A stretch of 64,000 nucleotides of DNA from an uncultured candidate division Zixibacteria bacterium (GCA_963668625.2 CAXXKA010000010.1:224001-288000); one strand, 5' to 3'; counted from the first letter of the stretch, positions 4,242 to 52,142 are shown. The notes: generated by a model not told the origin, from the letters alone. Numbers and translations are program-made.

Positions 4242-4257
4242 AGCAACTAATATGCCA
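4242..4257 (-). promoter_or_regulatory. Sigma54 (-24/-12) promoter of the PEP-CTERM gene
   Basis: Minus strand TGGCATATTAGTTGCT = GG-N10-GC with a TTGC -12 element, about 50 nt upstream of the ATG. Confidence 0.7.
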
Positions 4258-18787: not shown

Positions 18788-19543
18788 ATGTTAAGAGAAA
18801 TCGGAAAATTCGTAGTAATCATCGCTTTTTTCGCGACCTTAGCTTTACCGGTTGACGCGCAGAGCCAGAGTTGTTATGCAGGCCTTAGTATTGATTATTT
18901 GAATTATGTAGATAGGGATGGCACTCAGTATGTATCATTACCTGTTTATATCGGCTTCGATTGCCCCATCGGCGGATTTTTAATTGATATAAAAACAGAA
19001 CCATATGGCGCCCTGGAACCTGTTGATGTTAATACAGAGGGCGGGCTGGTTGATTATTGGGAGGTGATTGAGCCCTCTCGTCTCCGTCAAAAAGAAAAAT
19101 TGCGTATTCTCGGTATAGCTAACTATCCCGATGGTGAATATACTCCGCCATTGGAACCCCAGACGGGCCTCTTATTTAATGTGCTATTTCGTTTCGGATG
19201 TGATTATGATGAAAATGTCCAGGTGACTGTGTTATTGGATTCGGTTTTTATCTCCGACAGCACCGGGTATGAATTATTTGATGATGTAAATGTTTCGCAT
19301 AGTTGGGTGTATGTTGGCGAGGAGATAACCGATATTGACCGCGGAGATATGAACTGCGATGGTATGATAATCGGTGCTGATGTCTCGTTCCTGGTTAACT
19401 ATTTCAGGGGAGTGGTTCTTGATTGCCCCTGTAGTTTGTGTGCCGGTGATATCAATAATGACGGCCGGATAATAGGTAGTGATGTAACTTACCTGGTTAA
19501 TTATTTCATAGGCCGTAATCCGCCGCCGGATCCATGTGATTAA
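18788..19543 (+). CDS. Secreted cohesin-like + C-terminal (class A) dockerin protein, adaptor-like
   Basis: Signal peptide; VSLPVYI...IGGFLIDI...ISDSTG cohesin-like region; RGDMNCDGMIIGADVSFLVNYF...AGDINNDGRIIGSDVTYLVNYF. Confidence 0.85.
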   Translation: MLREIGKFVVIIAFFATLALPVDAQSQSCYAGLSIDYLNYVDRDGTQYVSLPVYIGFDCPIGGFLIDIKTEPYGALEPVDVNTEGGLVDYWEVIEPSRLRQKEKLRILGIANYPDGEYTPPLEPQTGLLFNVLFRFGCDYDENVQVTVLLDSVFISDSTGYELFDDVNVSHSWVYVGEEITDIDRGDMNCDGMIIGADVSFLVNYFRGVVLDCPCSLCAGDINNDGRIIGSDVTYLVNYFIGRNPPPDPCD

Positions 19544-19713
19544 TATTATTTATATATAAATTACCTGATTTCCTTGAAGGAGGTGATGAGACAGAGGAAC
19601 AACCAAGTTACTATTATTAAAAGAGGGGAAAGAGGAAAGGGATTTCCTCGACAGAAATTAGTTAGTGTGTTAAGTTTTAACACCTGTTATGTTCACAATT
19701 GAAGGAGATAAAC

Positions 19714-22029
19714 ATGAAGAAGATTTTAGTTCTTTCTTTTATTCTTCTCTTCGCCACAGCGGCTATGGCCCAGGACGTATACTTCTACTATGGTTGGCCT
19801 GGTTCGGGTACCGGTGATGCTGGCGATCCTATTCCGATTGGCTACAATAAAGATGTAGATATTGAAGTTTATTTCATGGGTACTACTGGTGTTGGCGGTG
19901 GTTCGTACAATGCCCCGTTAGCCATTAACAATGCTTATGCTGACTATATTGATACCCTCCAGTGCTACTTTGATGCTGCTGGTACGGTAATCAATTGGGA
20001 TAGCAAAAACTTCGGTAACTACGAAGAAGACAAAGACCTGATTGCTATTGCTTATGGCACCGACGGTGTCAGCACCTGGGATTCCTGGGGTAACAATGGT
20101 ATTATCGAGCTCTTCCCCCCATATGATTCACCTCCGTTCGTATCGATGGTTCCGGAAGTCAACCTTCACTACATGATTCATACCAATGATGATCCTGCCC
20201 TTATCGGCGAGAGCACTTGTGCTCTGGTTAATGGTGGTTGGGACCCCTTCCAGGAGTGGCCGTTAATGTCCGATACTTCTGGTACTATCACATATAATGC
20301 TATCTGGGAAGGCGCTTGCTATTTCTTCTCACCCAACCAGCCGGTTGAGTTTGTTGAAGGCGACGCCGTACCTGGTTGCACTTATGTTGATTTCTCGATG
20401 ACCGCGACTTTCTGGGATCCCGATGGTGATGTTCCGGATATTACCGTGAACGTTCCGCTGGCTACCTATACAGTCGAGGAAGTTGCCGATCCGGCTAACG
20501 AAGACGCTGCTTTCTTTATTGTTACAGTCGATTTCGACATGGAAAACTTCTGCGGTACTTGCTTCAATGACGATGTCATTATTACCGCTGTCGATCCTAA
20601 CAATGCTGAAGAGCCGTCTGAATTCAACGCTGGTAACTTGACCATCGTTGGTCAGATGACCGCTTCCATGGATCCTGCCCTGTACATCTGGCCGGGTCTC
20701 GAAGATTGGATGCCGATCTACTTAGATACCTGTGGTGATTGCTTCTGCCTCGGCGGTTTCGTATTCTCCATAGAGTGGGATTCCTCCATCCTCACCGTCA
20801 CCGACGTTGAGCGTGGCGCTATCCTCATGGGTGGTGAGTACTGGAATGTCAATATGGGTGTTGATGGCGCCGGTACCCTCCGCGTCACCTTCATCAACGA
20901 TCTTGACAACCAGACCGAAGTCGAGCCGATCTGCGGTATCGACGCTGGTGAGCCTCTGTTCAGAGTTAAATTCCTGCTCAGTGCCGCTTTCCAGTATCCT
21001 GTAAACCATTGCGTTCCGATTTGCTTCATGTATGACCTCGAAGGCGAAGATCACTACGATTACAACAACGTAGCCGACGCCGAAGGTTATCACGTTTGGT
21101 TCAACGATGGCTGCGACGATGCCCCGGATTCCTCACAGTATGGAACTCTGGATCTGGATCTCGTCTGTGGTAACATCAAGGTCTTAGACGAGCACAATAT
21201 TGTTCTCGGCGACATGAACTTGAACGGTTACGAGTTTGAAGCTGGTGACGTCGTTGTCCTGGCCAACTATCTGATCGATCCTATCAACAACCCGCTGAAC
21301 CTCCGTCAGATGTATGCTTCAGACGTTAATGATGACGATATTCAGGGCAGCATTGCTGACCTTATTTACATGATCAATACTGTCAACGGTTACGACGGCT
21401 TTGGCAAGCTTGCTCCGCTTGATGTCATTGCTACCGTTTCCATGCCGGCTGTCACTGCTGGTAACGTTGATGTTTCCATCAACTCCGAGGCTGCCGTTGG
21501 TGGCGCTCGCGTTGAGATCGCCCATGCTGGTGTTGAGCTTGGTGTCCCGACCGTCGATGGTATGGATATTGAGTACAACGATAACGGTGAAGTCATGACT
21601 GTCATCGTTTACAACATGGATTCCCAGGCATTTGCCGCTGGTACCAACACCCTCTTTACCATTCCGGTTATGGGTGAAGGCGCCGTTTCCATCAATGACG
21701 TTCAGGTTGCCGATAGCCGTGGTGCTCTGTTAGACGCCCGTTCCGAAGTCGCTGCCGCGATACCGGAATTCTTCGCTGTCAACCAGAACTTCCCGAATCC
21801 GTTCAACGCCAAGACCAGTATCGCTTTCGGTCTGCCGACTTCCGCTGATGTTACTATTAACATCTTCAACGTCGCCGGCCAGCTGGTCGAGTCAATGGAA
21901 CTGGGTAATGTCAATGCTGGTAACCACAGTGTGGTATGGGATGCCAGTGATGTCGCTAGCGGTGTCTACTTCTATAAAGTATCCGCCGGTGACTTCACCG
22001 AGACTCTGAAGATGACCCTGCTGAAGTAA
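19714..22029 (+). CDS. Secreted Ig + cohesin + class B dockerin + FlgD-Ig/T9SS-type CTD protein, probably abundant
   Basis: AAGGAG RBS; signal peptide; LGGFVFSIEWDSSILTV; GDMNLNGYEFEAGD...ASDVNDDDIQGSIADLIYMIN; QNFPNPFN...SGVYFYKV...KMTLLK; strongly biased codons (GGT, GCT, AAC, TTC). Confidence 0.88.
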   Translation: MKKILVLSFILLFATAAMAQDVYFYYGWPGSGTGDAGDPIPIGYNKDVDIEVYFMGTTGVGGGSYNAPLAINNAYADYIDTLQCYFDAAGTVINWDSKNFGNYEEDKDLIAIAYGTDGVSTWDSWGNNGIIELFPPYDSPPFVSMVPEVNLHYMIHTNDDPALIGESTCALVNGGWDPFQEWPLMSDTSGTITYNAIWEGACYFFSPNQPVEFVEGDAVPGCTYVDFSMTATFWDPDGDVPDITVNVPLATYTVEEVADPANEDAAFFIVTVDFDMENFCGTCFNDDVIITAVDPNNAEEPSEFNAGNLTIVGQMTASMDPALYIWPGLEDWMPIYLDTCGDCFCLGGFVFSIEWDSSILTVTDVERGAILMGGEYWNVNMGVDGAGTLRVTFINDLDNQTEVEPICGIDAGEPLFRVKFLLSAAFQYPVNHCVPICFMYDLEGEDHYDYNNVADAEGYHVWFNDGCDDAPDSSQYGTLDLDLVCGNIKVLDEHNIVLGDMNLNGYEFEAGDVVVLANYLIDPINNPLNLRQMYASDVNDDDIQGSIADLIYMINTVNGYDGFGKLAPLDVIATVSMPAVTAGNVDVSINSEAAVGGARVEIAHAGVELGVPTVDGMDIEYNDNGEVMTVIVYNMDSQAFAAGTNTLFTIPVMGEGAVSINDVQVADSRGALLDARSEVAAAIPEFFAVNQNFPNPFNAKTSIAFGLPTSADVTINIFNVAGQLVESMELGNVNAGNHSVVWDASDVASGVYFYKVSAGDFTETLKMTLLK

Positions 22030-22062
22030 TTTAACTTTAGCGGCGATTTTTCATAGATCTAC

Positions 22063-22094
22063 AGGTGGGAGAGGCTTAGGTCTCTCCTGCCTTT
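22063..22094 (+). terminator. Stem-loop/terminator after the 19714 gene
   Basis: aggtgggagaggc-ttag-gtctctcctgcct, 13 bp including G:U pairs, then tt. Confidence 0.65.
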
Positions 22095-22230
22095 AATTGT
22101 TAAAGGTATCGTTGCAGGTAAGTTGCAATTATTTGCGTTTTATGAGGAAACACTTTTTGAAACATCAAGTTAATCAGAATATTAGCCCTTGTATTATAAT
22201 AACTTGTAATGCAATAGGTTAACTGAAAGG

Positions 22231-22246
22231 CGGCACGGTATTTGCA
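22231..22246 (+). promoter_or_regulatory. Sigma54 promoter for the genes from 22290 onward
   Basis: CGGCACGGTATTTGCA, a near-consensus GGCAC-N5-TTGCA about 45 nt before the ATG. GTTGCA-N5-GTTGCA direct repeat at 22111-22127 lies in enhancer position. Confidence 0.75.
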
Positions 22247-22289
22247 TATTTGATATTGAATAAATTAAAAAGTGTTTTTCGGGGGAAAA

Positions 22290-23111
22290 ATGAAAAAAAT
22301 AGCCGTACTTTTGTTAGCCGCCGTTCTTTCCTTTAATGTTATTTTACTCGCCCAAGATGATAGTTTATATTTAACATCAGTTACCGTTGAGGCTGGTGAC
22401 ACCGCTGTGGTTGGTTTGTATTTACAGAACCAATCTTTTAGTGTTGGCGCTTTTCACACGGAAATGACGTTATCCGATACATCCCTGGCTAAGTTTGTAT
22501 CGGCGACTAGAGGCGATGATGTTCAGGATTTCAGTTATTTTAATGGTGTGGTATTTTCGCCGGCGAAAATATCATTGACTGGTATTGCCAGTATGCCGCT
22601 GGCGCCATCCGAGCCTTTGCCCGTTGGTTATCATCACTTAGCCACCTTTAGAATAGCGATTTCAGACAGTGTACATTCACGCTCGGAGGTTTCCGTATCG
22701 TTTTTCAACGATGAAGAGTTTACGAACGTGATAAGCGATACCACCGGGTATGATGTGGTTGAACCGGTCCTGGTAAACGGTTCTATTACGATACTTCAAT
22801 TTCTCTCAGTTGATGACAACATTATCATTCCCAATGAATTTTCTCTTAAAGGGAATTATCCAAATCCCTTTAATGCAAATACTATAATAGAGTTTTCTTT
22901 GAACAAGCCCGGGCATGTTACCCTGAATATTTATGATATCAGGGGTAGAAAGGTACGCGGACTTGTTTCAGGTTATTATAATTCAGGCAATCATTCGGTA
23001 AGTTGGGACGGATGTACATCAAGCGGTACGGTCCTGGCTTCCGGTATTTATCTATATCGTTTATCTACTGGCGGTTACAGCCAGACTGGGAGAATGAATT
23101 TTATCAAGTAA
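22290..23111 (+). CDS. Single cohesin-like domain + FlgD-Ig/T9SS-type CTD protein
   Basis: Signal peptide; VEAGDTAVVGLYLQN...VGAF...ISDTTG...LVNGSITI; NYPNPFN...WDG...SGIYLYRL. Confidence 0.85.
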   Translation: MKKIAVLLLAAVLSFNVILLAQDDSLYLTSVTVEAGDTAVVGLYLQNQSFSVGAFHTEMTLSDTSLAKFVSATRGDDVQDFSYFNGVVFSPAKISLTGIASMPLAPSEPLPVGYHHLATFRIAISDSVHSRSEVSVSFFNDEEFTNVISDTTGYDVVEPVLVNGSITILQFLSVDDNIIIPNEFSLKGNYPNPFNANTIIEFSLNKPGHVTLNIYDIRGRKVRGLVSGYYNSGNHSVSWDGCTSSGTVLASGIYLYRLSTGGYSQTGRMNFIK

Positions 23112-23124
23112 AACGGTAAAAAAA

Positions 23125-23955
23125 ATGTATTATAGACTTGTGTTTTTTACACTTATTATTATATTGATTTCAGCATTAAATAGTAATGCGCAGATACCTT
23201 CTGAAATCGATTCAGTAAAAATTGAGAGTAGTACTTCAAGACCAGGAGAAGTTGTAACAACATCAATCCATTTGGTTAATACATTTCCGGTAGGAGGAAT
23301 TTCTACAAGGTTGGAATATAATCAAGATGTTTGTAGTATTCAGTCAGTTAGTCTTTCTAGTCGTGTATCATTTATGAATATCTTCGCAGTCGATACATCC
23401 AATACAGGAGTTTTAATGCTTAGCGCGGCTTCACTGTTTCCGCGGACCAGTTATATCGCGCCCGGCTCGGGTGAGGTGTTTGATATCGAGTTCGTGATAA
23501 ACGGTAGCGCACAACCGGGATCCTATGATTGGGATTTACGGAATTCGAGCGCGTATAATTATGAGAATCATCTTTCCGATACTACCGGGCTTTACATGTA
23601 TTTGCCGGTTCTCGCTGATGGTGAACTGGAGATAGAGCCACCGGTATTTTTAGATTATACCGATAATAAGCCTGAAAATATTAATATTCTTACCAACTAT
23701 CCTAATCCGTTTAACAATCACACCGTAATATCGTTTAGCCTGGTTGATGCCGGGCAGGCGAGGTTGGTTGTTTACGATCTTTTGGGCCGAGAAGTAACAT
23801 CTATGGTACTGGGGTATAAGTCTCCCGGTAGCTATGCCATAAGATGGGATGGACGCGATAATTCTAATAAGGAGGTATCCACCGGCGTCTACAGCTATGC
23901 TTTGTATTGTAATAATTATGTAGTGTTAACAAGTAAAATGATTTTATTAAGATAA
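23125..23955 (+). CDS. Single cohesin-like domain + FlgD-Ig/T9SS-type CTD protein
   Basis: Signal peptide; PGEVVTTSIHLVNTFPVGGISTRLEYN...IAPGSGEVFDIEF; NYPNPFN...WDGRD...TGVYSY. Confidence 0.85.
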   Translation: MYYRLVFFTLIIILISALNSNAQIPSEIDSVKIESSTSRPGEVVTTSIHLVNTFPVGGISTRLEYNQDVCSIQSVSLSSRVSFMNIFAVDTSNTGVLMLSAASLFPRTSYIAPGSGEVFDIEFVINGSAQPGSYDWDLRNSSAYNYENHLSDTTGLYMYLPVLADGELEIEPPVFLDYTDNKPENINILTNYPNPFNNHTVISFSLVDAGQARLVVYDLLGREVTSMVLGYKSPGSYAIRWDGRDNSNKEVSTGVYSYALYCNNYVVLTSKMILLR

Positions 23956-23965
23956 ATGGGGCTTT

Positions 23966-26389: not shown

Positions 26390-26468
26390 CTTTTGCTTCA
26401 CTCCAAAGCCTTTTTTCCGTTCCGTTGTGGGAGTTTCTTAAGAGTTTGGGATTAAAAGAGAGGCTAAG

Positions 26469-29400
26469 ATGAAGATAAAGGCTTTATTGTGGGCGATATT
26501 GTTTATGAGCGTTACGGGTGGGTTGGCCTATGCTCAAAATGCCCCGGTAATTGACCCAATTAGTCCCCAATTTGTTGATGAGGGCGAACACCTGGAATTC
26601 GTAATCACTGCTTCCGATACGGATGGCGATTCTCTGGAATATACTTTATTGAATTTACCAACGAACGCCTCGTTTGTCGATAGCGGTAATGGCCATGGAT
26701 TGTTTACTTTCGACCCTGATTATTCGCAATCCGGTAACTTACAGATTAGCGTAATAGCGCAGGATAGTTCTATGGCCGACACTGAACTGGTTGATATCAC
26801 TGTTAACGATGTCAACCGCGCGCCGGAGTTCGATCCGGTAACCGCGCAATCGGTTGATGAGGGAGCGCATCTCGAATTCGCGTTAATCTCTTCCGATCTC
26901 GATGGTGATGGTTTGACACTCACCGCCGAGGATTTACCTGCCAACGCCACATTTGTCGATAGCGGCAACGGTCATGGTTTGTTCGAGTTCGATCCCGATT
27001 ACACGCAATCGGGGGAGGAGCAGGTACGGTTTATCGCTAGCGACGGTACGCTTGCCGATACTATTACGGTAGATATCACTATTAATGATTATAACAGCGC
27101 GCCAACACTGACGGCTATCAGTGGTCAGTCGGTGGACGAGGGTTCGCATCTGGGGTTCCTTGTAGAGGCTACCGATCCTGAGAGTGATATACTGACATTG
27201 ACAGCGGAAAACTTACCGACCAATGCCACGTTCACCGATAGCGGCAATGGAACCGGTTTGTTCGAGTTCGATCCCAGCTACATTCAAAACGGTACATATA
27301 ATGTAAGGTTTATTGCAGACGATGGTTTCTATGCAGATACCCAGATGGTTTCGATAACGGTAAACAGGGTGAATGTCTCGCCCGTGATTACCGCGATACC
27401 CGTCCAGGCGGTAGATGAGGGACAGCATCTCGAGTTTGCTATTTCTGCAACGGATATTAATGATGACGTGATTGACCTGCTGGCTGAAAATATGATAGCC
27501 AACTCATCATTTACCGATAACGGTAACGGTCAGGGTACGTTTACTTTCGATCCCGATTATTCCCAAAGCGGTATATATAATGTGAGGTTTGTCGCCGAGG
27601 ATGGCGAGTTGGCTGATACTCAAGTAGTAGAAATTACAGTCAACCATATCAATCTCGCCCCTGTAATAGATACAATAACGGCGCAATCCGTGGATGAGAA
27701 CACCCATTTCGAGTACCTGTTGACCTCCTCAGATTTCGACAGTGACGCGCTGACTTTCACCGTGGGATCCAGCCCTCTGAATAGCTCGTTTACCGACTAC
27801 TCGGATGGCACGGGCTTATTCGAGTTCGATCCGACTTATCTTCAGAGCGGCGTATATAATGTAAGCTTTATTGTCGCTGACGGAGCCTTAAGCGATACTA
27901 TGACTATGTCGGTGACTGTTAATGATGTTAACGCCCCGCCTGTTCTCGGTCCTATCGGCTCGCAGGTAGTGGATGAGAAACAATCACTGGGCTTGCTGAT
28001 CACCGCCTCGGATGTTGATGGGCAATCCATAAATATGACTGCCGAACAATTGCCTGAAAACGCCTCGTTCATCGATAGCGGCAACGGTAACGGCTGGTTC
28101 GTGTTCGATCCTGATTCGACCCAGAGCGGCGAGTACGCCGTCAGGTTCATTGCAAGTGACGGTGCGGCTGCGGATACCCAACTGGTCGATATAACGGTCA
28201 ACCAGGTTAACGTTGCCCCGAGTATTGACCCGATCAGCTTGCTGGCTGTTGATGAGGGTGACCATCTGGGGTACGTGATTACCGCCACCGATTTCGACAA
28301 CGATGCGATCACTTTATCGATGTATAACGATCCGCTTAACTCGGCCTTTGTCGACAGCGGTAACGGTCATGGCCTGTTCACTTTCGATCCCGACTTTTCA
28401 CAGGAGGGATCGTACACTGTCAGGTTTATTGTCAGCGATGGCGTATTGGCTGATACATCGACGATGGGAATTTCGGTCAATCATTTTAATACCGCCCCGG
28501 TGATAATTCCCATAGGCTCACAAGAGGTGGCCGAAAATCAAACATTGGATATTCATGTTTTAACTACGGATAATGAAAACGATAACAGGACGATTACGCT
28601 GAGAAACGCTCCGGCCAACTCCTCGCTGGCCGATTCGGGTAACGGCAACGCCTTGTTTACGTTTACTCCGGGCTACGATCAGACAGGAAATTATAATGTC
28701 ACTTTCATAGTTAATGACGGTGAGTATGCCGATTCGGAAATCGTAGCTATCGAGGTAACCAATACCAACCGCGCGCCCGAGCTTAACGCTGTTGGTTCTC
28801 ATTTCGTGGATGAGAGCTCACACCTGGAGTTCGTGGTCACTGCCACCGAACCTGATTTACAATCGATTACTTTAACCGCCCAGAATTTGCCGTTGAACGC
28901 ATCATTTACCGACAGCGGTAATGGCAATGGTCTGTTTTCATTCGACCCGAATTACGTTCAGGCGGGAACATATACGGTAAGGTTTATCGCCAGTGATGGC
29001 GAGCTAGCGGATACATCTTTCGGTGATATCGTCGTTAATAACATAAACCGTCTACCGGTACTTGCATCAATAGGCAGCCAGGCACTGAATGAGGGTGAGC
29101 ATCTGGTTATTTCTCTTACCTCAAGTGATGAGGATACCGATGATGATCCGGTATTGAGCGCCGAAAACGTTCCCTCGATGAATGCGACATTCACCGATTC
29201 CGGTAACGGTAACGGTTCATTCATATTCGATCCCGATTATACGCAGAGCGGAGTTTATAACGTTCTGTTTATAATCAATGACGGTATAGCCGCCGATTCG
29301 GAGATGGTTACGATAACGGTGAACGAGTACAATCTCGCTCCGGAACTTGCAGCGATTGGCACGCCGCAAAATGTCTCTGAAAACCAGACTTTGCTGTTTA

Positions 29401-41400: not shown

Positions 41401-43919
41401 ATGAGGGGGATACGCTCCTGGTTAATCTTTCTGCGAATGACCCGGATGGTACCGAACCGCCGATTATTACTATCAACAACCCGCATCCGCACTCTGAATT
41501 TACCGATAACGGCGACGGCACCGCAATCTACAGGTATATGCCTGATTATCTCGATGCCGATCTCGATACACTTGTTTTCATTGCGATAGATTCGGAAAAT
41601 CTGCAAGGTATACTCAGGGTTGAGGTGACCACGGATGAAACTAACCTTCCGCCTGATTTGATGTACGAGGGTGATTCGGTTGCCATTCAAGGTGAAACCA
41701 TGAGAGCGCAATTGATCGCTACCGACACAACTGATTCGGATGGCGGTCCGTTATTCCTATCGGCATTATACCTGCCGGATAACGCCCAGTTTACCGATAA
41801 CGGTGATCATACCGGTGAATTCGAATTCTCGCCGGCATACGATCAGGTAGGATTGGATTCAGCAGTGTTCATCGCGGTGGATGATGATTTACCGTCAATG
41901 TCCTCGACGATAACTGTTCATATTGAGATAAGAAGTCAGAACCGACGACCCGTTTGGGATCCGATCGATTCTTATGAGATTGATCAGGCTGAAACGCTCA
42001 CTGTAGACATATCCGCCACCGATCCCGATGGGGATACATTGATACTGCAACTGGCCCAGACTCCCGCGCCCCCGAGAAACGCCAGTATTGTAGATAACGG
42101 TGACGGCACGGGCGAACTTATATTCGCACCGGATTATACTCAGCAGGGAGTATTCATTATAAATCTGGTGGCATACGATCTTCTGGATAGAGCCACAACT
42201 TATGCCTTTGTCATGGTAAACGATCTGGGGAATCAGCCACCTACGCTGAATTTCATAGAGGATATCACGCTTGATGAGGGAGATAGTATCGAGGTTGTCG
42301 TTACAGCCACCGATCCTGATTCGACCTCGCCCGCTATACTGGTTGAAGGCGCTCCGCACAGGTTTAATTATCTGGATAACGGTGACGGGACAATGGATAT
42401 ATCGTTTATTCCTCTTTTCAACCAGGCTGGAACTTATGAGCTGCTGTTTATGGCGATGGATTCCGATGGCGCCGCTGATTCACAATATGTAAATATAACC
42501 GTAATTGAGGTGGGCAACCAACCGCCGAGAATCGATGTTATCAGTTTCCTGCCCGTCGATGAAATGCAGACGGTGAACAGGTTGATCAGCGCCAGCGATC
42601 CAGATTCTACTATACCATCCTTGCGCCTGCTTAATCCGCCGGAGAACGCGACATTCGTCGATTCCGGCAACGGCTATGGAAGGTTTATCTGGACGCCTAA
42701 CTACTTCCAGTCAGGTACCGATACACTGGTATTCAGGGCTATCGATGAGGAGGATTCGACGGTTTTCTACGATCGCCAGGCGATTCTGGTAATCAATAAT
42801 GTGAATCGTCCTCCAACCATGGAGGAAATAGTTGGCCATGTCGTAGCCGAGGGTGAAACGCTTGGATTCCTGGTAACGGCCGACGACCCTGATAACACTT
42901 TCCCGATTTTACGTATGGTTACACAACTGAATAACACCACCTTTACGGACTCCGGTAACGGCGTGGGTTATTTCAGTTTCACGCCCGCCTATAATCAATC
43001 GGGATACCGACCGGTAATGTTCTATGCCAGGGATGTCGATGACACCACGGTATTTGCCGAGGCGCTCGCCAGAATCACGGTGACTAATGTCAATCGCCCG
43101 CCGGTTATGGAGAGTTTACCCGAAGACACGACTATTGCGGATGGCACTCAATTCGAGTTAACGATCACCGCTAGTGATCCTGATGGAAATACTCCGTCAT
43201 TGCTAGCCTCCAATATGCCGTCCACGGCAACATTCGTGGATAATGGCGATGGTACCGGACTATTCAGATTCCTGACTGATTTTGGCGATGTTGGAGATTA
43301 TGCGGTAACATTCTGGGCTCGCGATCCCGATAATTCATCAGTGTTGGTAAGCCAGACCGTGACTATTCATGTCATAGCCGCCGCTGAGCATGCACCGTAT
43401 TTCGTCAACAGTGATACTACGATTTCTACCCGACCTCTTGAATTGTTGAATATCATGATGGAGGCGATTGATTATGACGGCGATGCACTGACATTCTCTT
43501 ATATCGGTTCTCTGCCGACTGGAGCTGTTTTAACCGATGGTGGCGATGGAACCGCCGTGTTTAACTGGACGCCAAGCTATGCTCAGAACGATTCGCAATA
43601 TACACTACAATTCGTTGTTACCGATGCTACCGACAGATCGGATACATACACGATGCAGATTGAGGTGAGAAATTGGATCAGGGGTGACGCCAATGGTGAC
43701 GGAAGCGTACTTGGCTCGGACGTTGTTTATCTCGTGAATTATTTCAGATCGCTTGTCCCGAGACCCGAACCCGTACAGCGCGGTGATGCTAACGGCGACG
43801 GCGATATTCTTGGCTCGGATGTCACTTACCTGGTTAACTATTTCAGAGGTGTAGGCCCCCCGCCTCCGCCGGGTCCGGCCACAGATGATAACAATAACCT
43901 TTTTGAACTAAGGGACTAA
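26469..43919 (+). CDS. Giant (5816 aa) tandem Ig/cadherin-like repeat surface protein with a C-terminal class A dockerin
   Basis: Signal peptide; about 61 repeats of ~93 aa (NxAP...QxVxEG...DxDxD...LPxNAxFxDSGNGHGLFxFxPDYxQxGxY...SDG..D); ends RGDANGDGSVLGSDVVYLVNYFR...RGDANGDGDILGSDVTYLVNYFRG; no CTD. Confidence 0.93.
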   Translation: MKIKALLWAILFMSVTGGLAYAQNAPVIDPISPQFVDEGEHLEFVITASDTDGDSLEYTLLNLPTNASFVDSGNGHGLFTFDPDYSQSGNLQISVIAQDSSMADTELVDITVNDVNRAPEFDPVTAQSVDEGAHLEFALISSDLDGDGLTLTAEDLPANATFVDSGNGHGLFEFDPDYTQSGEEQVRFIASDGTLADTITVDITINDYNSAPTLTAISGQSVDEGSHLGFLVEATDPESDILTLTAENLPTNATFTDSGNGTGLFEFDPSYIQNGTYNVRFIADDGFYADTQMVSITVNRVNVSPVITAIPVQAVDEGQHLEFAISATDINDDVIDLLAENMIANSSFTDNGNGQGTFTFDPDYSQSGIYNVRFVAEDGELADTQVVEITVNHINLAPVIDTITAQSVDENTHFEYLLTSSDFDSDALTFTVGSSPLNSSFTDYSDGTGLFEFDPTYLQSGVYNVSFIVADGALSDTMTMSVTVNDVNAPPVLGPIGSQVVDEKQSLGLLITASDVDGQSINMTAEQLPENASFIDSGNGNGWFVFDPDSTQSGEYAVRFIASDGAAADTQLVDITVNQVNVAPSIDPISLLAVDEGDHLGYVITATDFDNDAITLSMYNDPLNSAFVDSGNGHGLFTFDPDFSQEGSYTVRFIVSDGVLADTSTMGISVNHFNTAPVIIPIGSQEVAENQTLDIHVLTTDNENDNRTITLRNAPANSSLADSGNGNALFTFTPGYDQTGNYNVTFIVNDGEYADSEIVAIEVTNTNRAPELNAVGSHFVDESSHLEFVVTATEPDLQSITLTAQNLPLNASFTDSGNGNGLFSFDPNYVQAGTYTVRFIASDGELADTSFGDIVVNNINRLPVLASIGSQALNEGEHLVISLTSSDEDTDDDPVLSAENVPSMNATFTDSGNGNGSFIFDPDYTQSGVYNVLFIINDGIAADSEMVTITVNEYNLAPELAAIGTPQNVSENQTLLFNISATDPDGVIPTLAAYDLPSNATFVDSGNGVGTFTFSPDYFQAGSYDIIFAASDGNLADSQVVEVIVDNLNRAPELTPITAQSVDEGGYLGFNISASDPDLETLTITAQNIMPNASFTDSGNGAGFFEFNPNYTQAGNYIVRFIVSDSEFADTIYVDVTVNAINAPPVLAAIPTPQVVGEEDNLEIIITAIDPDGTTPTLAAENLPTNAAFSDNGDGSGGFTFDPVYGQAGGYDILFIAGDGEYADSQIVHLDVVVTNSPPILDPISAQATAEGDILQIIITASDPDLTSPFISAFDLPENAAMYDSGNGHAMLEFIPDFDQEGVYNIMIIASDGSFSDTGYAEITVSNTNVSPVWQVIDDQDVDEGDSLYLHVISSDYDNQALTLTAQSLPLNSVFSDSGNGHGLFRFGPDFTQSGIYNLNFIVSDGEAADTEAVEITVNQINMKPAMTAIGSQSVDEAGHLEFTINTIDFDGDSLILSAEDVPINATFTDLYNNRGDFTFDPDYTQSGVFDVLFIVSDGDMADSELVAITVNDINLPPQIDDVITQSVDEGEHLEFVVTSSDFDPDLLTLIAENMPTNAAFYDSGNGHGLFIFDPDYSQANSYQVRFIVDDGDDADTTQVDITVNDINVAPELAGLSDQTVNEGETLELNVTSIDYDLDTIILTAFDLPANASFYDSTNGTGLLTFTPDYTQGGDYTIGFIAADGALADTEYVTINVEQINIAPELAAIGAQNVDEGGYLEVPVSGTDFDNDALTLIAQNLPTNASFFDSGNGSGSFVFNPSYTQAGNYQVRFIVDDGVLADTELVVITVVETNRAPSITPLSSRSLAEGGSTSFVVFATDPDGVIPALEAFDIPTNSTFEDFGTGSGLFGFNPDFTQAGIYNVGFIASDGELVDTEYVEITVNQVNIAPELNPITDQVIDEGDVFNLVVMSTDYDNDILTMVAEDLPSNATFTDSGNGHGLFRFSPDYTQTGDYTVRFIVSDSDLADTLDVGIIVNNTNRVPVLGTLTDRSVNEDDFISFIVGASDPDGVIPVLTTIDLPANASFEDYSTGTGLFTFSPDNSQSGLYTIGFVASDGDLADTGYIDITVNQVNLAPVLNPPSPQSVEEGGHLEFVVTSSDYDLDALTLSAEDIPLNATFTDSGNGHGLFTFDPSFDQAGVYHVRFIVSDSEFSDSALVSITVGGTNLPPVGEAITDREVNEGGFLSITVNFSDPDGQLLAISSFDRPSNSSFVDNGNNSGRFEFNPDSSQAGSYIVGFIGYDGSLSDTIYANIDVNDINVAPYLDPITTPQTVTEGQTLTFNVSASDYDGNTLTLTTSSLPAHAAFTDSGNGVGTFRFTPNFEQSGDYEIWFNVSDGSLNDSQLVEITVNEINRAPEIADIMSQVIDEGSDLFLYIKSSDPDGQIPVLSAFDMPIRTELIDSSNGRGTLIFRPNYSQSGIYNIGIVSSDGDLADTFVVDITVNDINLAPEIDPLNSQLTNEGEHLELVVTSSDFDEDNLVFTVNDLPLNAVFTDSSNGHGLLTFDPDYSQSGVYNVQFIVSDGDLSDTATVEITVLHINMPPELASIGSRSVAESGHLELLITATDLDAQTLILTAESLPLNAVFSDSGNGHGLFMFDPDNTQAGTYNIRFIASDGTLADSELVEITVNDVNQAPVLAALGDTTVNEGGTLVMTVTATDFDNDTITLNAFNLPTNASFTDNGGGSGTFDFSPDYSQDGAYTVGFVAGDGDLADTVQITVTVNNSNQSPTVASITDRNVNEGAYLSFIVSATDPDGVTPSLAMIDGPLNATFDDNGNGSGLFTFSPGYTQAGAYDIGFVGSDGELADTEYVQITVNQINIGPSFDPISAQVVSEGGHLEFAVISTDFDDDPLVVNEYSLPTHAAFEDSGNGHGLFTFDPDYGQSGVYTVRFISSDGSLSDTIDVAITVTNNNLPPTLGSLADRIIDEDDYLGFVVSAGDPDGTTPVLSALDVPVNGTFEDNGNGSGLFTFNPDYTQSGVYTVTFFATDGELSDTGTVEITVNNVNLAPELDPISPQSVEEGGNLELVVSSTDFDGDQLYLSAENIPANSSFADSGNGHGLFTFNPSFDQDGVYYIRFISFDGSLADSQLVSVSVGQTNLPPVGEEISAQVIDEQATLNFPVSFTDPDGQLLILSSINAPANSSFHDNNDGTGEFEFNPDSSQAGDYTVGFIGYDGLLADTVYAEITVNDVNVAPILGQITSPQTVAEGQLLTFAVAASDFDANILTLTALPLPTNAVFDDSGNGHGLFTFSPDYTQSGQYDIWFKAADSSLADSQLVVINVTEFNRSPVITSVPSQVINEGETLQVVIEAVDPDGQIPVLSALDMPTNAVFTDSGNGNGLFEFTPDFNQNGNYTVRFIATDSELSDTISVEITVNESNLPPELETITDQDMDEGTHLEFIVSSFDPDLDELTLTALNLPSNAAFTDSGNGHGLFTFDPDYTQAGDYQVSFISSDGDLADTMAANITVNHVNLPPELAEIGAQSVDENGHLEFVITSSDFDEQALTLNVVDLPINAAFTDSGNGHGLFAFDPDYTQAGVYPVLYIVSDGELADSEMVNITVNDINLAPEIAEITDQSVAEGEHLEFNVIATDFDENSLSLTTIDLPANATFDDSGNGHGLFAFDPDFNQQGVYDIGFVAGDGNLADTEYVQVTVYETNLPPVITPVADRTLDEGAFQSFVVSSSDPDGTTPTLTMFNNPANTLFEDNGNGTGLFQFSPDYTQSGVYDIGFIASDGVLADTEMVQVTVNHINIAPVLEPVASQVVSEGGHLEFVVASSDFDADVLTLLASNMPSNATFADSGNGHGLFEFDPVYDQGGNYNVRFICSDGDLTDTIDVTITVNNTNQSPELGTLTDRNIDEDQYLGFVVSATDPDGTTPILSVFDLPTNAQFEDNGNGTGLFTFRPDYSQAGVLNVGFIASDGELRDTGYVEITVNQVNLAPELGSILPQSVEEGGHLEMVVLSTDFDNDALTLSAEDLPVNAVFSDSGNGHGLFVFDPTFDQEGIYYIRFIVTDGALADSQLVSVSVGGTNLPPVGEAVADQEVAEQGNLQFAVTFADPDGQLLSLSSFDRPGNSSFIDNEDGTGSFTFDPDSSQAGVYDVGFVGFDGLLADTVMVSITVTDVNVRPSLDTIQTPQLVVEGESLIFGVTADDFDGNVLNLTTSTLPTNAAFVDSGNNAGSFSFSPDFTQSGSYDIWFIASDTALADSQMVTISVVEENLPPVLADVPAQSIDEGGLLEFVVISTDPDGQTLSLWALDMPDNATFDDSGNGHGLFSFSPDNAQAGEYAVGFVASDGGLNDTISVDITVNHINLAPVLDTIGPLTLYEGTRFELVITSSDFDLDELTLTASNLPVNASFADSGNGHGLFVFDPAYGQAGDYTVTFITNDGVLADTEIVEITVQQSNRPPKWETIPNYSVQEGGILQFTVAASDPDSTTPALSIDNYPANITFVDSGNGHGWFRFAPSYTQSGVYDILFLASDGDLVDTAIVQITVNESGNQHPVITPVQSQEVNEGEHLEFVLIATDPEGSIPILSAMNMPANSAFIDSGNGHGLYQFDPDFFQSGVYDVSFIAFDGQYADTELVEITVYDVGFAPELDPIGPQTVAEGSSLELTITGSDPDLTFPELIAENLPENATFTDSGNGVGVMIFNPDYTQAGVITVLFIATDGALSDSEYVQVTVTEFGNVAPILELIPDISLSEGDSVGITISAADPDGNVPFLSVTDTPSNTEFDDNLDGTGTFIFQPDYYQAGEYDITFIADDGELADSQMVHITVSDRNGPPAIDEIMAQSVTEGDSLGFLINSVDPDNNAVTLSADDVPENAYLVDNTDGTGVFNFLPGYTQAGLYEVFIIASDGESSDSQIVSITVNEAGNQAPQFNPVDTLLTVVEGDSLGVVISAYDEDGDMISFNYGSLPFNSGFTNLSADSILFYFKPNYTQVGSYTVNMNVSDGSLSTDLRISIDVLEAGSLAPIFDPIEAQSVDEGDTLLVNLSANDPDGTEPPIITINNPHPHSEFTDNGDGTAIYRYMPDYLDADLDTLVFIAIDSENLQGILRVEVTTDETNLPPDLMYEGDSVAIQGETMRAQLIATDTTDSDGGPLFLSALYLPDNAQFTDNGDHTGEFEFSPAYDQVGLDSAVFIAVDDDLPSMSSTITVHIEIRSQNRRPVWDPIDSYEIDQAETLTVDISATDPDGDTLILQLAQTPAPPRNASIVDNGDGTGELIFAPDYTQQGVFIINLVAYDLLDRATTYAFVMVNDLGNQPPTLNFIEDITLDEGDSIEVVVTATDPDSTSPAILVEGAPHRFNYLDNGDGTMDISFIPLFNQAGTYELLFMAMDSDGAADSQYVNITVIEVGNQPPRIDVISFLPVDEMQTVNRLISASDPDSTIPSLRLLNPPENATFVDSGNGYGRFIWTPNYFQSGTDTLVFRAIDEEDSTVFYDRQAILVINNVNRPPTMEEIVGHVVAEGETLGFLVTADDPDNTFPILRMVTQLNNTTFTDSGNGVGYFSFTPAYNQSGYRPVMFYARDVDDTTVFAEALARITVTNVNRPPVMESLPEDTTIADGTQFELTITASDPDGNTPSLLASNMPSTATFVDNGDGTGLFRFLTDFGDVGDYAVTFWARDPDNSSVLVSQTVTIHVIAAAEHAPYFVNSDTTISTRPLELLNIMMEAIDYDGDALTFSYIGSLPTGAVLTDGGDGTAVFNWTPSYAQNDSQYTLQFVVTDATDRSDTYTMQIEVRNWIRGDANGDGSVLGSDVVYLVNYFRSLVPRPEPVQRGDANGDGDILGSDVTYLVNYFRGVGPPPPPGPATDDNNNLFELRD
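26535..43670 (+). repeat. About 61 intragenic ~279-bp domain repeats with a 2793-bp higher-order period in the middle
   Basis: Counted by hand from the translation. TNLPPVGE begins at 32961, 35754 and 38547, exactly 2793 bp apart. Confidence 0.85.
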
Positions 43920-43951
43920 GTTTAAAAGCTCCACCGTGAGGTTTGGTTGAG

Positions 43952-45460
43952 ATGAAAAAAATAGCAGTAAGTTTAATCATCCTGATAATGCTCCTGAGCG
44001 GCAGCGCTGCTTTTGGAGAGTTTAACCATAAAAATATGGTTTTACTCGAGGATCAGGATGGGTACGAAATTTCATTCGGGCCATCCGTGGAAGCCTACCA
44101 GGGACAGGAAAATATAATTGTACCGATTCGATTGGTAAGCGAGGAGGAGGTCAATTACATTTATTCGTATATTGAATATGACGCCTCGTTGCTGGCGCCG
44201 GTTACAGTGGCTCCATCCATGTTTTTTCAGCATTTCGAGTACGATTTCGTCTCTGAAGGTAAAATCGAACTGGAACTTCAATGCAACTTGCTGCCCCCGC
44301 CGGCGGTAGACCCGATTCCTCCCGGTGATACGGCTTTCGCTTATATAGTATTCGATGTTCTGGCGGAAAATATCGATCATGACCTGGCCGCTTTGCTGGA
44401 TTTTGCCGAGGATATAAACACGCCGTTTCCGGATAATTTTATCATGCTGGATAATGGTTACTTTATTGTACCTCCGCAACTCAGTCTTACCCCGGGCTCG
44501 GTTTTCATTTTTCGGCCTCTTTATGGAGATATCAATCTCAACAATATGGTTTATGAAATCGGAGATATGATTACATTTATTTCGCATTTGAGCGGGGAGA
44601 CAAGTTTCACTCCCCGCCAAACTGCGAATTCGGATTGTAATCGTGATGGCGTAGCGGCTACGGTTTCGGACCTGGTTTACATGCTAAATGTGATAAATGG
44701 AGAACCCGATACATTGCTGTACTCGCCGGGTATGCCGATTGAACCATATCAGCTCACGGAAATCTATACCATATATGCTCCAGATCGGCTTAAAATCCTT
44801 GACAATAATTATATAATCCATATATTTCTAATAGCTGAAGAGCCTCTTAACGGCTTTTTAATTTCGCTTAAAACTCCTGATTTTATTTCGAGTGTCGGTG
44901 ATGTAGCTCTTGGCAGCAACGGAAACGACAAGATAGTTCTGAATTCAAGATCAAACAACGACAACCTGAATATTATTGGTTGTTGTCAGGGTGATGCTTT
45001 GAGTTCAACCGGTAAAATTCATTTACAAATCCCGGTTACCAGTAATGTATGTTTTACCAAGTCGGATTTAAGCGTTACGTTCAAAGACTTTTCAGATGAA
45101 GTAGGGAATATGATTAACGCAGAATTTGAAGTGCAAATCGAAGAATTGAATACTATTGCTATTAATACTACGGAGGAGGAAGATATATCCTCAGATGTAA
45201 GCATTTATCCCAATCCTTTCAACTCACGCGTTAATATTTCTTACGCTCTCTCACAGCAGAGCCTGGTTTCGGTGGAGGTCTTCGATATACTTGGCAGAAA
45301 GGTCAAGGTACTCAAGGACGGTTACGAAAACGCCGGAGTTCAGCATGTTAGCTGGGATGGTCGCAACTCGAGCGGAAGAATCGTATCATCGGGAATGTAT
45401 TTTTGCAAGTTAAGGTTAAATTCGCAGGAACAAACTATCAAAATCCATTTTTTGAAGTAG
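43952..45460 (+). CDS. Cohesin-like + class B dockerin + FlgD-Ig/T9SS-type CTD protein
   Basis: Signal peptide; IIVPIRL...YIEYDASLL...IPPGD; GDINLNNMVYEIGD...NSDCNRDGVAATVSDLVYMLNVING; IYPNPFN...WDGRN...SGMYFCKL. Confidence 0.85.
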   Translation: MKKIAVSLIILIMLLSGSAAFGEFNHKNMVLLEDQDGYEISFGPSVEAYQGQENIIVPIRLVSEEEVNYIYSYIEYDASLLAPVTVAPSMFFQHFEYDFVSEGKIELELQCNLLPPPAVDPIPPGDTAFAYIVFDVLAENIDHDLAALLDFAEDINTPFPDNFIMLDNGYFIVPPQLSLTPGSVFIFRPLYGDINLNNMVYEIGDMITFISHLSGETSFTPRQTANSDCNRDGVAATVSDLVYMLNVINGEPDTLLYSPGMPIEPYQLTEIYTIYAPDRLKILDNNYIIHIFLIAEEPLNGFLISLKTPDFISSVGDVALGSNGNDKIVLNSRSNNDNLNIIGCCQGDALSSTGKIHLQIPVTSNVCFTKSDLSVTFKDFSDEVGNMINAEFEVQIEELNTIAINTTEEEDISSDVSIYPNPFNSRVNISYALSQQSLVSVEVFDILGRKVKVLKDGYENAGVQHVSWDGRNSSGRIVSSGMYFCKLRLNSQEQTIKIHFLK

Positions 45461-45755
45461 TTGTATTTACCGGCTGTCAAATATGCTTCTATTCTTCAGT
45501 TGTTTCTTGAACTGCGTTTGCCTTGCATAGAGCTTTGAAAAGCATAAAATTAAATAAGAAAGTAACTTGCGTGTAATTGGTAAGTGTAAACTTATTTTTC
45601 TAAGAAAGGAAGGTGTCAATAGGTTAAAGGAAATTACAAGATTGATACTCATTACAATTAACTCTTTGGCTTTGGAAATCAGGGTAATCATAGAGAAAAA
45701 AAGAAGTGTAAGTTAGTTTAACAAATTACTCCAAAGATTTTATGGAGGAAAAGTA

Positions 45756-51700: not shown

Positions 51701-52142
51701 CGAGTTCCTGAGCTGCGGTAATACCTACACTGGTAGCATTAACTTCACCAGTAACGATCCGCAGGTTCCCACGTACTCCGTGCCTGTTTCATTCACTACA
51801 GATTGCGGTCCTAACGGATACGAATATCTGCCTGGTGATGCCAATATGGCTGCCGGTGCCTGGCCGCCGAACGTAATCGGCGCTGACGTGACCTACCTGG
51901 TCAACTACTTCCGCGCTATCGCCTCGCCGTGTCTGCTCGGTGGTTACTATGCCTCCGGTGACGCTAACGGTGATTGCTTGGTAATCGGTGCCGACGTTAC
52001 TTATCTCGTCCAGTATTTCCGTGGTGCTAATACGATCAAGTACTGCGGCGATGATGTTGGCGAGGATGACTACACACCTGCATGGCTTAATACTGGGGAA
52101 CTACCCCCGAGTGCGCCTGCCGGTTGGCCGAACTGCGAATAG
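45756..52142 (+). CDS. Large Cys/Asp-rich mosaic surface protein with a C-terminal class A dockerin
   Basis: GGAGG RBS; signal peptide; 7 PPC-like beta modules; 6 GxCC six-Cys modules; 2 cleaved-adhesin/MAM-like domains (WYIDNV, WMVDNV); GDANM...IGADVTYLVNYFR...GDANGDCLVIGADVTYLVQYFRG. Confidence 0.88.
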   Translation: MRKTLLLTTVIILAFSLVFAWAGDKKDQVEKKITATSNTHAPQVDDVKEQKAPEVAPAEQPAVVPEAKAKFIDPNDERVAKADEELYLQKQNGAFKPVEQVEEVNTVVKAKAKEVKAEEEKAVRIISEHELLKIKASEMGVSVEELLHKESIVPLTPPGLTTATGDNCADPITLTIPADLPFVDQDQATCGRGNSDSTSCMGNYDGGEDIVYEITVTADTYVNFIFDPKGTIWTGFALAAECPPVTCIFNNTSASGSERSQDGVLLEATVGTYYLMIDTYPDPDCIPDFDLTIEEYTAPTGRCCDYTDPPNPVCTDGVEEADCDGAAMTWVEGLLCSTDPCPSYIGNDCAYPIVITDADLPYSETGQTTCMRGNTYSETCLGNYDNDEDILYAFTNTSGADIFIDVEVTNATAAYLGILADTLCPGGSSCLDYETGYYGSYDISLEIVPVNAGQTVYIMVDNYEEGCFDFDFDITQYLVPTGRCCNYDTDPDNPTCTDAMEEDDCVASGTDVSWVEDYDCTTNPCPVPPVNDDCADAMTVVPDVEYTVDNTRATDDGDGGEDIRHNVWYCYTATLTGTAQIRLCDSDFDTELAVYEGCNCDAGMASRMLAYNDDNSTVCGSGGRSALDLDITLGESYLIEAGTYSSYTTFGDIVLIIEETAAPVEGDSIENAYTIPSLPYSDAGNTSAFTDNYVGSCGTHVSAPDVVYAYTATVDTFIDISLCGSSYDTRLYVYENDTSTEVACDDDGCPSVTTTTRSWINALYVTSGDTYYFVIDGYSSNSGDYVIDVDFADPPALGDACSNPIDITAFPYTFADNSCNYTNKVRYDGPDVIWRFTLAAAARLQFSLCNSDSVFYDNLFLHEDGTCGGDYLTYEYDGCASSAMTEFTYDLGAGTYYLVLDGSSSTPNCGEFQLDIAEIVIPTGRCCYYDTNPADPYSPICVDAITEVDCDALIDTFSGTWTEGLDCTSDPCPVPVDFTGTETFDDAVNSFYNYSMADDAAWEWTATYGNPAPGMYHNDTYVECDDYLVSNGSYTVPDVEMISLYFDQDCNYPTYYQLHEVLVSTDFAGDPSTATWVTLYEGFGDEAWTTMSFSLEAYRGQDVNFAFHYMGNGDTEWYIDNVKVQIPPTGRCCDYTADINNPVCTDDVYADACAGELMTWLEAGTCSTDPCPVPPANDDCANAIDVTGTYPVSGTGTTIMAQPDCPDSLDEFRAVWYKFDLAYAYNNVTITMCGDDTDIDTVGIILTDDCVCDDYILATGYDFDTTYCSTGYTGVQLYINYLPAGTYYWPAKMTDANGEGMDFSYTIDVVEYVPLPGDMCENALTVDAMPFTSDTLNTCNYGDFCDISGLNSSEIIFEWVVPAEYVYTVSLCDSITDYDTKIAIYADECCTGPETYYAYNDDACGTASEITTTFFPGTYYVVVDGYDGDCGLTILDISEFGEPPVGACCYGDFYNQSCADATEFECIDTYAGFSWVEGDSCATAECPSYGAFNSDVTAIDDSVDAVGPGNVKTQVINISNTGADTLTFTANAIIDPPTPAVGLSSAQFTTLSGIYNDVNLQKGDPLDRAQGLKFQQSLLADYTGFETFDSNIGEFTAYNVDTGDTTTWYWYDSDGNPAGCARIDYNSYNAEDDYLISNGTFTVPDVDDVALTFDQRDVFTYGLYYNTHEVLISLDFAGDPATATWVQLYEDDAQSTWETISISMETYRGDAVNIAFHYIGDDADDWMVDNVYIGTPQTGRCCYGSIYEPDCVDGVTLDSCDALSGIFTAEIDCSTPCEYWPHCDDDALVGQYPDMETWTGGTADAGVSLKRYDSYAGAYGLIEEVTFWGFDRWHDGTSWVECDEEPMDFEIQFWTDDAGIPGTLVYSESLSINPEAYTWDLSGRTLKEFHAVLNTAVELDNGWISIQGISINDPDCWFLWLSSTDGDDQSLTDDGTGLAVEAFDLNFCFNGTYQAPWLTIDVDEGEIAAGDPAIAITARMDAEFLSCGNTYTGSINFTSNDPQVPTYSVPVSFTTDCGPNGYEYLPGDANMAAGAWPPNVIGADVTYLVNYFRAIASPCLLGGYYASGDANGDCLVIGADVTYLVQYFRGANTIKYCGDDVGEDDYTPAWLNTGELPPSAPAGWPNCE

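Follow-up and report, generated by a model that had tools for sequence, protein, structure and literature searches.

The window considered here is the whole stretch of DNA that was analysed, 64,000 nucleotides from an uncultured candidate division Zixibacteria bacterium (GCA_963668625.2 CAXXKA010000010.1:224001-288000; G000:C10:224001-288000 in the handles used below), and it belongs to a 4.3-Mb, 10-contig genome with a completeness of 95.9%. At 18758-52142 it carries eight open reading frames (ORFs) on the plus strand, whose products, P1 to P7 and PG, combine cohesin-like domains, dockerins and the C-terminal domain (CTD) typical of cargo of a type IX secretion system (T9SS). An earlier note on this sequence had described eight co-oriented genes for secreted proteins at 18788-52142, where 18788 is the second start given for P1, and all eight ORFs are found as described, each with a hydrophobic, signal-peptide-like N-terminus in a by-eye reading of the translations. 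The genes for P3, P4, P5, PG and P6 are separated by only 10-79 nt, and wider intergenic gaps of 155-295 nt lie upstream of P2, P3 and P7.

Modules of the eight proteins

P1 (18758 or 18788 to 19543; 261 aa when counted from 18758) consists of a signal peptide, a cohesin (aa 38-189, nt 18869-19324) and a classical dockerin (aa 196-252, nt 19343-19513) with no T9SS tail, which is the make-up of an adaptor-type subunit; 13 full-length relatives were aligned, and the genome contains two paralogues. P2 (19699 or 19714 to 22029) has a signal peptide, an N-terminal domain of about 300 aa, a cohesin (322-470), a variant dockerin (503-564), a short cohesin-like domain (570-692) and a T9SS type A CTD (698-772). 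Its N-terminal domain (22-320) could be assigned to no family either by a PDB sequence search or in the ESM Atlas, where the best score, 0.82, is below a meaningful level. The paralogues P3 (22272 or 22290 to 23111) and P4 (23125-23955) are candidate surface sockets, each with a signal peptide, one cohesin (27-182 in P3 and 23-177 in P4) and a type A CTD. The scaffoldin P5 (23966-26389) is composed of cohesin 1 (33-178), two Big_9 immunoglobulin (Ig) domains, cohesin 2 (376-511), a variant dockerin (518-568), cohesin 3 (586-712) and a T9SS CTD. PG (26469-43919), a secreted rod of 5816 aa, has about 61 Big_9/cadherin-like Ig domains (32+29 Pfam Big_9 stretches) and carries at its end a classical dockerin (aa 5739-5795, nt 43683-43853), again with no T9SS tail. 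P6 (43943 or 43952 to 45460), which has about 70 relatives of near full length, contains a cohesin (38-191), a variant dockerin (194-253), a short cohesin-like domain (285-401) and a T9SS CTD (421-501). Finally, P7 (45756-52142) is a secreted protein of 2128 aa with 91 cysteines, six six-cysteine G(R/A)CC modules as counted by regular expression, two choice-of-anchor J stretches (NCBIfam choice_anch_J, 81.6 bits against a cut-off of 30) and a dockerin-like tail of about 100 aa (nt 51825-52139) that ends in ...WPNCE; no Pfam family exceeds its cut-off in this protein. The list of modules given earlier is correct and is extended here by a dockerin and a tail in P5 and by a further cohesin-like domain in each of P2 and P6.

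A T9SS type A sorting domain (TIGR04183, cut-off 23 bits) ends P2 (46.6 bits), P3 (41.3), P4 (28.6), P5 (41.8) and P6 (42.6), and these five proteins together hold nine cohesin-fold domains; P1, PG and P7 have a dockerin at the end in place of a sorting domain. With Pfam, the T9SS-type tail (FlgD_ig or Por_Secre_tail) is all that is found in P2, P3 and P6 and is also matched in P4 and P5, and no surface-layer homology (SLH) domain is matched in P1-P7. The earlier observation that the eight proteins contain no glycoside hydrolase, peptidase or carbohydrate-binding module (CBM) agrees with the Pfam results, in which no such family reaches its cut-off with a matched stretch; the noise-level names are PepX_C in PG (25.2 bits, with no single stretch passing) and AMPK1_CBM (E 0.012).

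The cohesins are divergent, and several lines of evidence were required for their assignment. The Pfam cohesin model PF00963 (cut-off 24.1 bits) detects P4 (30.1 bits) and P5 (70.3 bits, three stretches), and its cut-off is not reached by P1, P2, P3 or P6. Structure models were made for P1 and P6, and the cohesins of P2, P3 and P5 were placed by profiles. For the AlphaFold 2 model of P1 (pLDDT 85), every listed Foldseek match in the PDB is a cohesin (best 4dh2_A, E 5.6e-10, TMt 0.66-0.76), and for that of P6 (pLDDT 78) the best PDB matches are type I cohesins (E 4.1e-9, TMt 0.74-0.83), so that the fold proposed for these domains holds in both models. The solved cohesins with the best fold matches (4dh2, 2vn5, 1ohz and 5lxv) share a sequence identity of 10-22% with the query domains. 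In hhalign comparisons with the P3/P4 cohesin profile, values of 99.3% were obtained for P1, 98.6% for P2, 99.9, 98.1 and 87.8% for cohesins 1, 2 and 3 of P5, and 96.1 and 95.7% for domains 1 and 3 of P6; domain 3 of P2 is linked only through cohesin 3 of P5 (95.4%) and domain 3 of P6 (95.5%). The third domain of P2, P5 and P6, situated in the interval between dockerin and tail, makes up a separate family of shortened cohesin-like domains (95-97% mutual by hhalign). The cohesin of P3 is also found with a custom cohesin hidden Markov model (HMM). Single-sequence PDB searches with P2, P3 and P7 gave FlgD or CTD-type matches or nothing, the cohesin homology needing profiles, and the weak PDB sequence matches were to 6za2 (a PorU structure) and 8glj (a CTD structure). 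Taken together, Pfam, NCBIfam, the two AlphaFold models and the profile-profile comparisons establish that the cohesin, dockerin and T9SS-type tail modules named in the earlier note are real.

Three kinds of dockerin are present. The classical kind is detected by the Pfam dockerin model PF00404 (cut-off 22.9 bits) in P1 (26.5 bits) and PG (29.9 bits) and also occurs on peptidases encoded elsewhere in the genome. It has two 12-residue calcium loops, with D, N and D at positions 1, 3 and 5 and D at position 12, each loop being followed by a helix of the V-T-Y-L-V-N-Y-F type; D16, N18, D27, D49 and D60 are invariant, and N51 nearly so, in an alignment of 14 sequences (A4). The internal kind, that of P2, P5 and P6, has loops of 13 residues as judged by eye, with the calcium-loop feature partly kept, and is a subfamily of its own (hhalign 95.9-99.7% mutual, 43-86% to the P1 dockerin). 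The third kind, the P7 tail, has a lengthened first loop, a partly kept loop feature and four conserved cysteines, and most of its copies end in ...WPNCE. With PF00404, P6 reaches only 15.0 bits (E 0.028) and P2, P5 and P7 give no match, their dockerins being found by custom HMMs alone.

P2, P5 and P6 share a cassette in the order cohesin, variant dockerin, short cohesin and CTD, of which P6 is the minimal form. Two further proteins, one of 2576 aa (C10:159112) and one with a beta-helix (L017), contain the cassette together with its CTD, and a truncated form that has no CTD occurs at C8:627439. The cassette is also found without the CTD in a plus-strand ORF at 5220-7112 of the window, a paralogue of P2 with no T9SS tail that comprises an N-domain, a cohesin (307-447), a variant dockerin (456-515) and a short cohesin-like domain; this ORF was recognized with custom HMMs and by BLAST to P2 orthologues, and has no Pfam match. 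In L017 (G000:C10:210335-213082, 11 kb upstream of the window), a NosD/pectate-lyase-like beta-helix is fused directly to the cassette, and therefore some putative enzymes are built into the scaffold itself.

Conservation and the dockerin proteins of the genome

The gene layout is not due to chance, since the same order is seen in nine of nine related loci; the gene set is conserved, as the reading in the earlier note required. The named relatives are 'Candidatus Zixiibacteriota' metagenome-assembled genomes (MAGs). P1 and P2 are adjacent in all nine loci with a P1 orthologue, P3 comes next in the seven loci that reach that far, and P4 follows in six, one locus having no P4. P5 and then PG are found in five loci, and PG is always 3' of P5 in relatives. 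The entire order from P1 to P7, followed by a GH35 gene, is retained in another genus (G004), P1-P5 with a short PG in another family (G021), and P2, P5 and two giants, with P2-P5-PG present, at the class level (G031). Of 40 relatives, 29 have a match to P5 that extends at a minimum over residues 323-807, a further four are cut by contig ends and seven match in the tail only. The kinase-P1-P2 start of the gene order also occurs at 29-43% identity in L098, L100 and other MAGs labelled 'uncultured Ignavibacteria'; the order runs through P5 and PG in L100, and L098 ends after P2. This label may be wrong, or the locus may occur in that group too.

In a phylum sample of 81 genomes, the dockerin profile is found in 80 (most genomes having at least 65 scored candidates) and the Pfam cohesin in 79. 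This co-distribution bears on one alternative, namely that the modules do not pair: the dockerin repeats would be calcium-binding, stabilising tails, the cohesin-like domains beta-sandwich spacers or ligand binders, and the proteins independent T9SS surface proteins and adhesins. An identity of only 10-22% to solved cohesins would lead one to consider such a possibility. However, the occurrence of cohesins and dockerins together in 79-80 of the 81 genomes is what a binding pair predicts, one conserved locus groups single-cohesin anchors, an adaptor and dockerin-tipped proteins, and the calcium-loop residues are retained; we therefore regard the absence of pairing as improbable.

A census of the genome was made with HMMs built from the window's own modules and run over 12,045 ORFs. 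The CTD is found in 222 ORFs and a C-terminal dockerin in 71, no ORF having both, and 68 of these 71 proteins are encoded outside the locus. In 70 of the 71 proteins, a further 6-66 residues follow the last dockerin. The custom HMMs also give 27 cohesin-like domains in 17 ORFs, 10 of them in the locus and 12 in the window; Pfam's own models give 24 dockerin and 10 cohesin matches in the genome. All dockerin proteins outside the window were compared with Pfam, the limit being E<=1e-3 for 20 of them and E<=1e-6 for 53. Thirteen of the 71 are peptidases (seven Peptidase_C25, three S8, two M14 and one C1), and there are four arylsulfotransferase-like proteins, four beta-helix proteins, two phosphatases or phosphodiesterases, one GATase_4-like protein and three FG-GAP proteins; 31 have no family except dockerin, and the other 13 are PG, P7 and proteins whose sole further match is a non-catalytic or uncharacterised family. 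Glycoside hydrolases number zero among the 71 by Pfam. A further C1 peptidase (L008) carries a weak dockerin together with a CTD.

The term enzyme-free, which the earlier note applied to the assembly, is true of the locus and not of the system, as 13 peptidases and two phosphatases or phosphodiesterases are among the dockerin proteins of the genome. Because these proteins include peptidases, the locus is the scaffold part of a system with enzymes, and is the main socket store for a protease-rich tagged proteome. In an enzyme-free lattice or sheath, which was the earlier reading, P1, P2, P5 and P6 would polymerise and hold only PG and P7, the tagged enzymes using other sockets or none. Such an arrangement is consistent with the presence of both cohesin and dockerin in four of the eight proteins, with the retention of the cassette in P2, P5, P6 and four other proteins of the genome, and with the absence of any enzyme in the locus itself, and a separate subfamily of variant dockerins fits a separate scaffold-to-scaffold specificity. 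However, in alignment A4 the dockerins of PG and P1 share 52-57% identity with those of the M14, S8 and C25 peptidases and belong to the same classical type, and therefore the same sockets should take the peptidases. In addition, 10 of only 27 cohesin-like domains available for 71 dockerin proteins are in the locus, which leaves few other sockets. A lattice that excludes the enzymes is thus quite unlikely in our judgement, and a lattice could exist side by side with an enzyme platform.

The P7-type tail accounts for 45 of the 71 dockerin tails. A search of 1.84 billion library representatives gave 967 matches to it at E<=1e-3, of which 106 reach E<=1e-30, and among the best 150 representatives the match ends no more than 41 residues from the C-terminus in 144. 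Tails of this type are nearly identical among the copies of a three-gene cassette that is present in five tandem copies on G000:C8:222000-254000 and in about three on G000:C10:416000-436400, both outside the window (L162, L163), and that consists of genes for a TrmB-like regulator of about 300 aa, a CTD protein of 570-1089 aa and a protein of 450-940 aa with the P7-type tail. The genes of about 300 aa in these cassettes of CTD protein and dockerin protein had been considered as PorP/SprF-like; this was rejected, as they are TrmB-like regulators. A dockerin 47% identical to that of P1 over 62 residues is found in JAWABG010000001.1 (L131), a contig labelled Candidatus Woesearchaeota; it could be a genuine archaeal dockerin outside any cellulosome, or the contig could have been wrongly binned or labelled.

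Proposed export, anchoring and binding

We consider it moderately probable that the locus encodes the structural centre of a docking platform, anchored by T9SS on the outer membrane, to which dockerin proteins from across the genome attach through cohesins. The scheme that follows is drawn, for export, anchoring and each binding step, from the T9SS of Bacteroidota and from cellulosomes. T9SS would export P2-P6 and fix them to the cell surface, as it does type A cargo in Bacteroidota, and the cohesins of these five proteins would then capture dockerin-tagged proteins in a calcium-dependent manner. P1 would serve as a one-cohesin adaptor, which we take to be comparable to ScaC of Ruminococcus flavefaciens, and in P2, P5 and P6 the variant dockerin inside the chain would join each anchored subunit either to another such subunit or to P1. 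PG would be a docked rod of about 61 Ig domains, and P7 another docked, non-enzymatic cargo. On this reading the platform would hold peptidases, giant rod-like adhesins and cysteine-rich proteins, and these would form a cell-bound layer that serves to attach to particles and to digest the protein in them.

The T9SS machinery is represented in the genome by SprA (713 bits, cut-off 200) and PorU (682 bits, cut-off 420). TIGR04183 in P2-P6 bears out the suggestion that T9SS-type tails stand at the position of the SLH or sortase anchors of Bacillota. Several points weigh against the docking platform, however. An ORF beside PorU is PorV-like, and reaches 87.8 bits against a cut-off of 250; a Pfam search for GldM gave no match, the controls being equally silent. 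The dockerin proteins have no T9SS tail, and the two secretins of the genome both lie in type IV pilus-like PilM-N-O-Q operons, so that neither finding accounts for the arrival of the dockerin proteins at the surface. The signal-peptide screen used in the census is crude, as 64 of the 71 dockerin proteins pass it and so do 1227 of 2491 background ORFs. The P7-type variant looks, from its sequence, as much like a sorting signal as like a dockerin. The P6 model has a pTM of 0.42 and a pLDDT of about 50-70 in its dockerin segment, and this low confidence leaves the variant dockerin fold a putative one. As for binding, a predicted complex of the P4 cohesin (23-178, alignment A3), the PG dockerin (A4) and two calcium ions gave ipSAE values of 0.08 and 0.11 against a mark of 0.32, in a comparison that included no control pairs, and counts neither for nor against pairing.

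The question of the export route suggests another explanation, in which the pairing has to do with sorting. The cohesin-CTD proteins would bind tagged cargo in the periplasm and carry it piggy-back through T9SS, or else the tail of about 100 aa would itself be a secretion or sorting signal for an outer-membrane route. The distribution of the CTD, present on 222 other proteins and on none of the 71 dockerin proteins, is in keeping with this idea, as are the position of the P7-type tail at the extreme C-terminus, with 45 copies having the near-invariant ...WPNCE end and 144 of the best 150 representatives placing the match within 41 residues of the C-terminus. Choice-of-anchor domains, which precede different C-terminal sorting signals, are present on P7, and both secretins are in pilus-like operons, no canonical type II secretion system (T2SS) operon having been seen in the genome. 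The last point loses some of its force in that the pilus-like system could itself serve as a T2SS, and in that a T2SS could be absent from an assembly that is 95.9% complete. Moreover, the dockerins of cellulosomes too are normally placed at the C-terminus, and we know of no precedent for piggy-back export through T9SS. A carrier or sorting role is unlikely in our view. It is likewise unlikely that the dockerin tails are also an export ticket, either by periplasmic pairing with cohesin-CTD proteins and joint passage through T9SS, or with the ...WPNCE tail as a new outer-membrane sorting signal. Both the lattice and the carrier explanation could be compatible with a docking platform.

Neighbouring genes, known systems and meaning

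Directly upstream of P1 on the plus strand are two genes that Pfam identifies as kinases, a GAF-PAS histidine kinase (12890-14614) and a Ser/Thr kinase with TPR repeats (14529-18020), with an overlap of 86 nt. One or both are found upstream of P1 in eight of the nine related loci, the contig of the ninth being too short, and it is possible, judging from this arrangement, that both kinases regulate the surface system. Terminator-like hairpins were found on the plus strand by consensus scan 3' of P2 (22063..22092, 13-bp stem) and 3' of P7 (52230..52256, 12-bp stem). Both are weak, because the number of sites in the promoter and terminator scans does not exceed that in shuffles, and the three sites noted in these scans are to be taken as weak hints. 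Three genes with no clear family (9305-10351, 10765-12006 and 12115-12627) accompany the locus in conserved synteny in different families of the phylum, and the product of 10765-12006 has a weak bactofilin match below the cut-off. At the other end, a GH35/GH42-like beta-galactosidase gene (52378-54543) lies 3' of P7, here and in G004; Pfam gives only glycoside-hydrolase-related families for its product, with no dockerin and no T9SS tail, and it probably does not belong to the surface system. The window also contains genes for an IS110-family transposase and for a small PEP-CTERM-motif protein (756-1838 and 3499-4323, respectively), and with the latter a second kind of C-terminal sorting signal is in use in the genome.

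The assembly shares some features with the cellulosomes of clostridia and ruminococci and differs from them in others. In Clostridium thermocellum, CipA is accompanied by the anchors OlpA, OlpB and SdbA, and R. flavefaciens has ScaA, ScaB, ScaC and ScaE. These systems and that described here have in common the cohesin fold, a dockerin built of two F-hands with calcium loops, and a logic of single-cohesin anchors, a multi-cohesin scaffoldin with its own dockerin and a one-cohesin adaptor, and in both cases each genome encodes tagged proteins by the dozen. Unlike the cellulosomes of Bacillota, which belong to monoderms with SLH or sortase anchoring, the Zixibacteria system is associated with an outer membrane and a T9SS CTD, has no cargo dominated by glycoside hydrolases and no scaffoldin CBM, and, unlike clostridial and ruminococcal cellulosomes, has a dockerin between two cohesins inside anchored proteins. 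It thus departs from cellulosomes in two defining features, the glycoside hydrolases with CBM and the SLH or sortase anchor, and the logic of plug and socket is alike. The gingipains of Porphyromonas gingivalis are T9SS type A cargo of Bacteroidota, and the present system resembles such cargo in the C-terminal TIGR04183, the presence of SprA and PorU, and C25 peptidases as surface-displayed enzymes. The C25 peptidase of P. gingivalis bears the CTD itself, whereas all seven dockerin-tagged C25 peptidases here carry a dockerin instead and the CTD is on the cohesin proteins, and therefore anchoring would be indirect.

A recent review of cellulosomes (2025) mentions Gram-negative bacteria, in the parts available, only in the context of engineered display, and states that peptidases are sometimes cellulosomal too (PMC12484212). 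The closest counterpart is the cellulosome-like complex of 'Ca. Stygibacter' (Cloacimonadota), proposed in silico by Williams et al. (2021; PMC8542988). The earlier statement that no characterised system has such a layout therefore stands as regards experiments and has to be qualified by this similar in silico proposal. As far as the accessible sections of that paper describe it, Stygibacter is likewise a diderm of the FCB group, with signal-peptide-bearing enzymes that have C-terminal dockerins, S8 and C25 (gingipain-like) peptidases included, a non-catalytic multi-cohesin scaffoldin whose T9SS CTD would attach it to the cell's own surface, and an inferred use on polypeptides. This hallmark is also found here, in the seven C25 and three S8 dockerin peptidases and in P5 with its three cohesins and CTD. 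According to the same sections, Stygibacter differs in having one scaffoldin of 3755 aa with CBM2/CBM3, and GH18 and GH57 cargo, none of which was found here, whereas in Zixibacteria the sockets are spread over five CTD proteins and an adaptor in a conserved, operon-like locus, and the cassette, two giant non-enzymatic cargoes and a second, cysteine-bearing tail on 45 proteins are present. Searches of PubMed Central and bioRxiv, with subscription journals outside their scope, gave nothing on Zixibacteria with dockerin or cohesin, the term cellulosome being met only in the unrelated PMC8131844 as far as its available text goes, and nothing on Latescibacteria with dockerin and cohesin.

For the T9SS field, the locus raises the question of how cargo with no sorting domain reaches the surface, and the export-ticket reading, if true, would amount to a new, phylum-wide way of choosing and exporting T9SS cargo. 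The locus is also a defined and conserved entry point for binding studies, with about ten cohesins and three dockerin types, and, if the proposed binding holds, the system would be a rich natural source of divergent cohesin-dockerin pairs functioning at an outer membrane, and so useful for surface display in Gram-negative hosts.

Finally, it should be noted that, if the binding proposed here holds, cohesin-dockerin assembly would not be peculiar to cellulolytic Gram-positive bacteria. An entire diderm phylum, uncultured and living in sediments, would use it as the normal means of furnishing the cell surface, each genome encoding dozens of tagged proteins, for the most part proteases or members of unknown families, to be held on T9SS-fixed sockets. 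This would bear on how Zixibacteria attack particulate protein.

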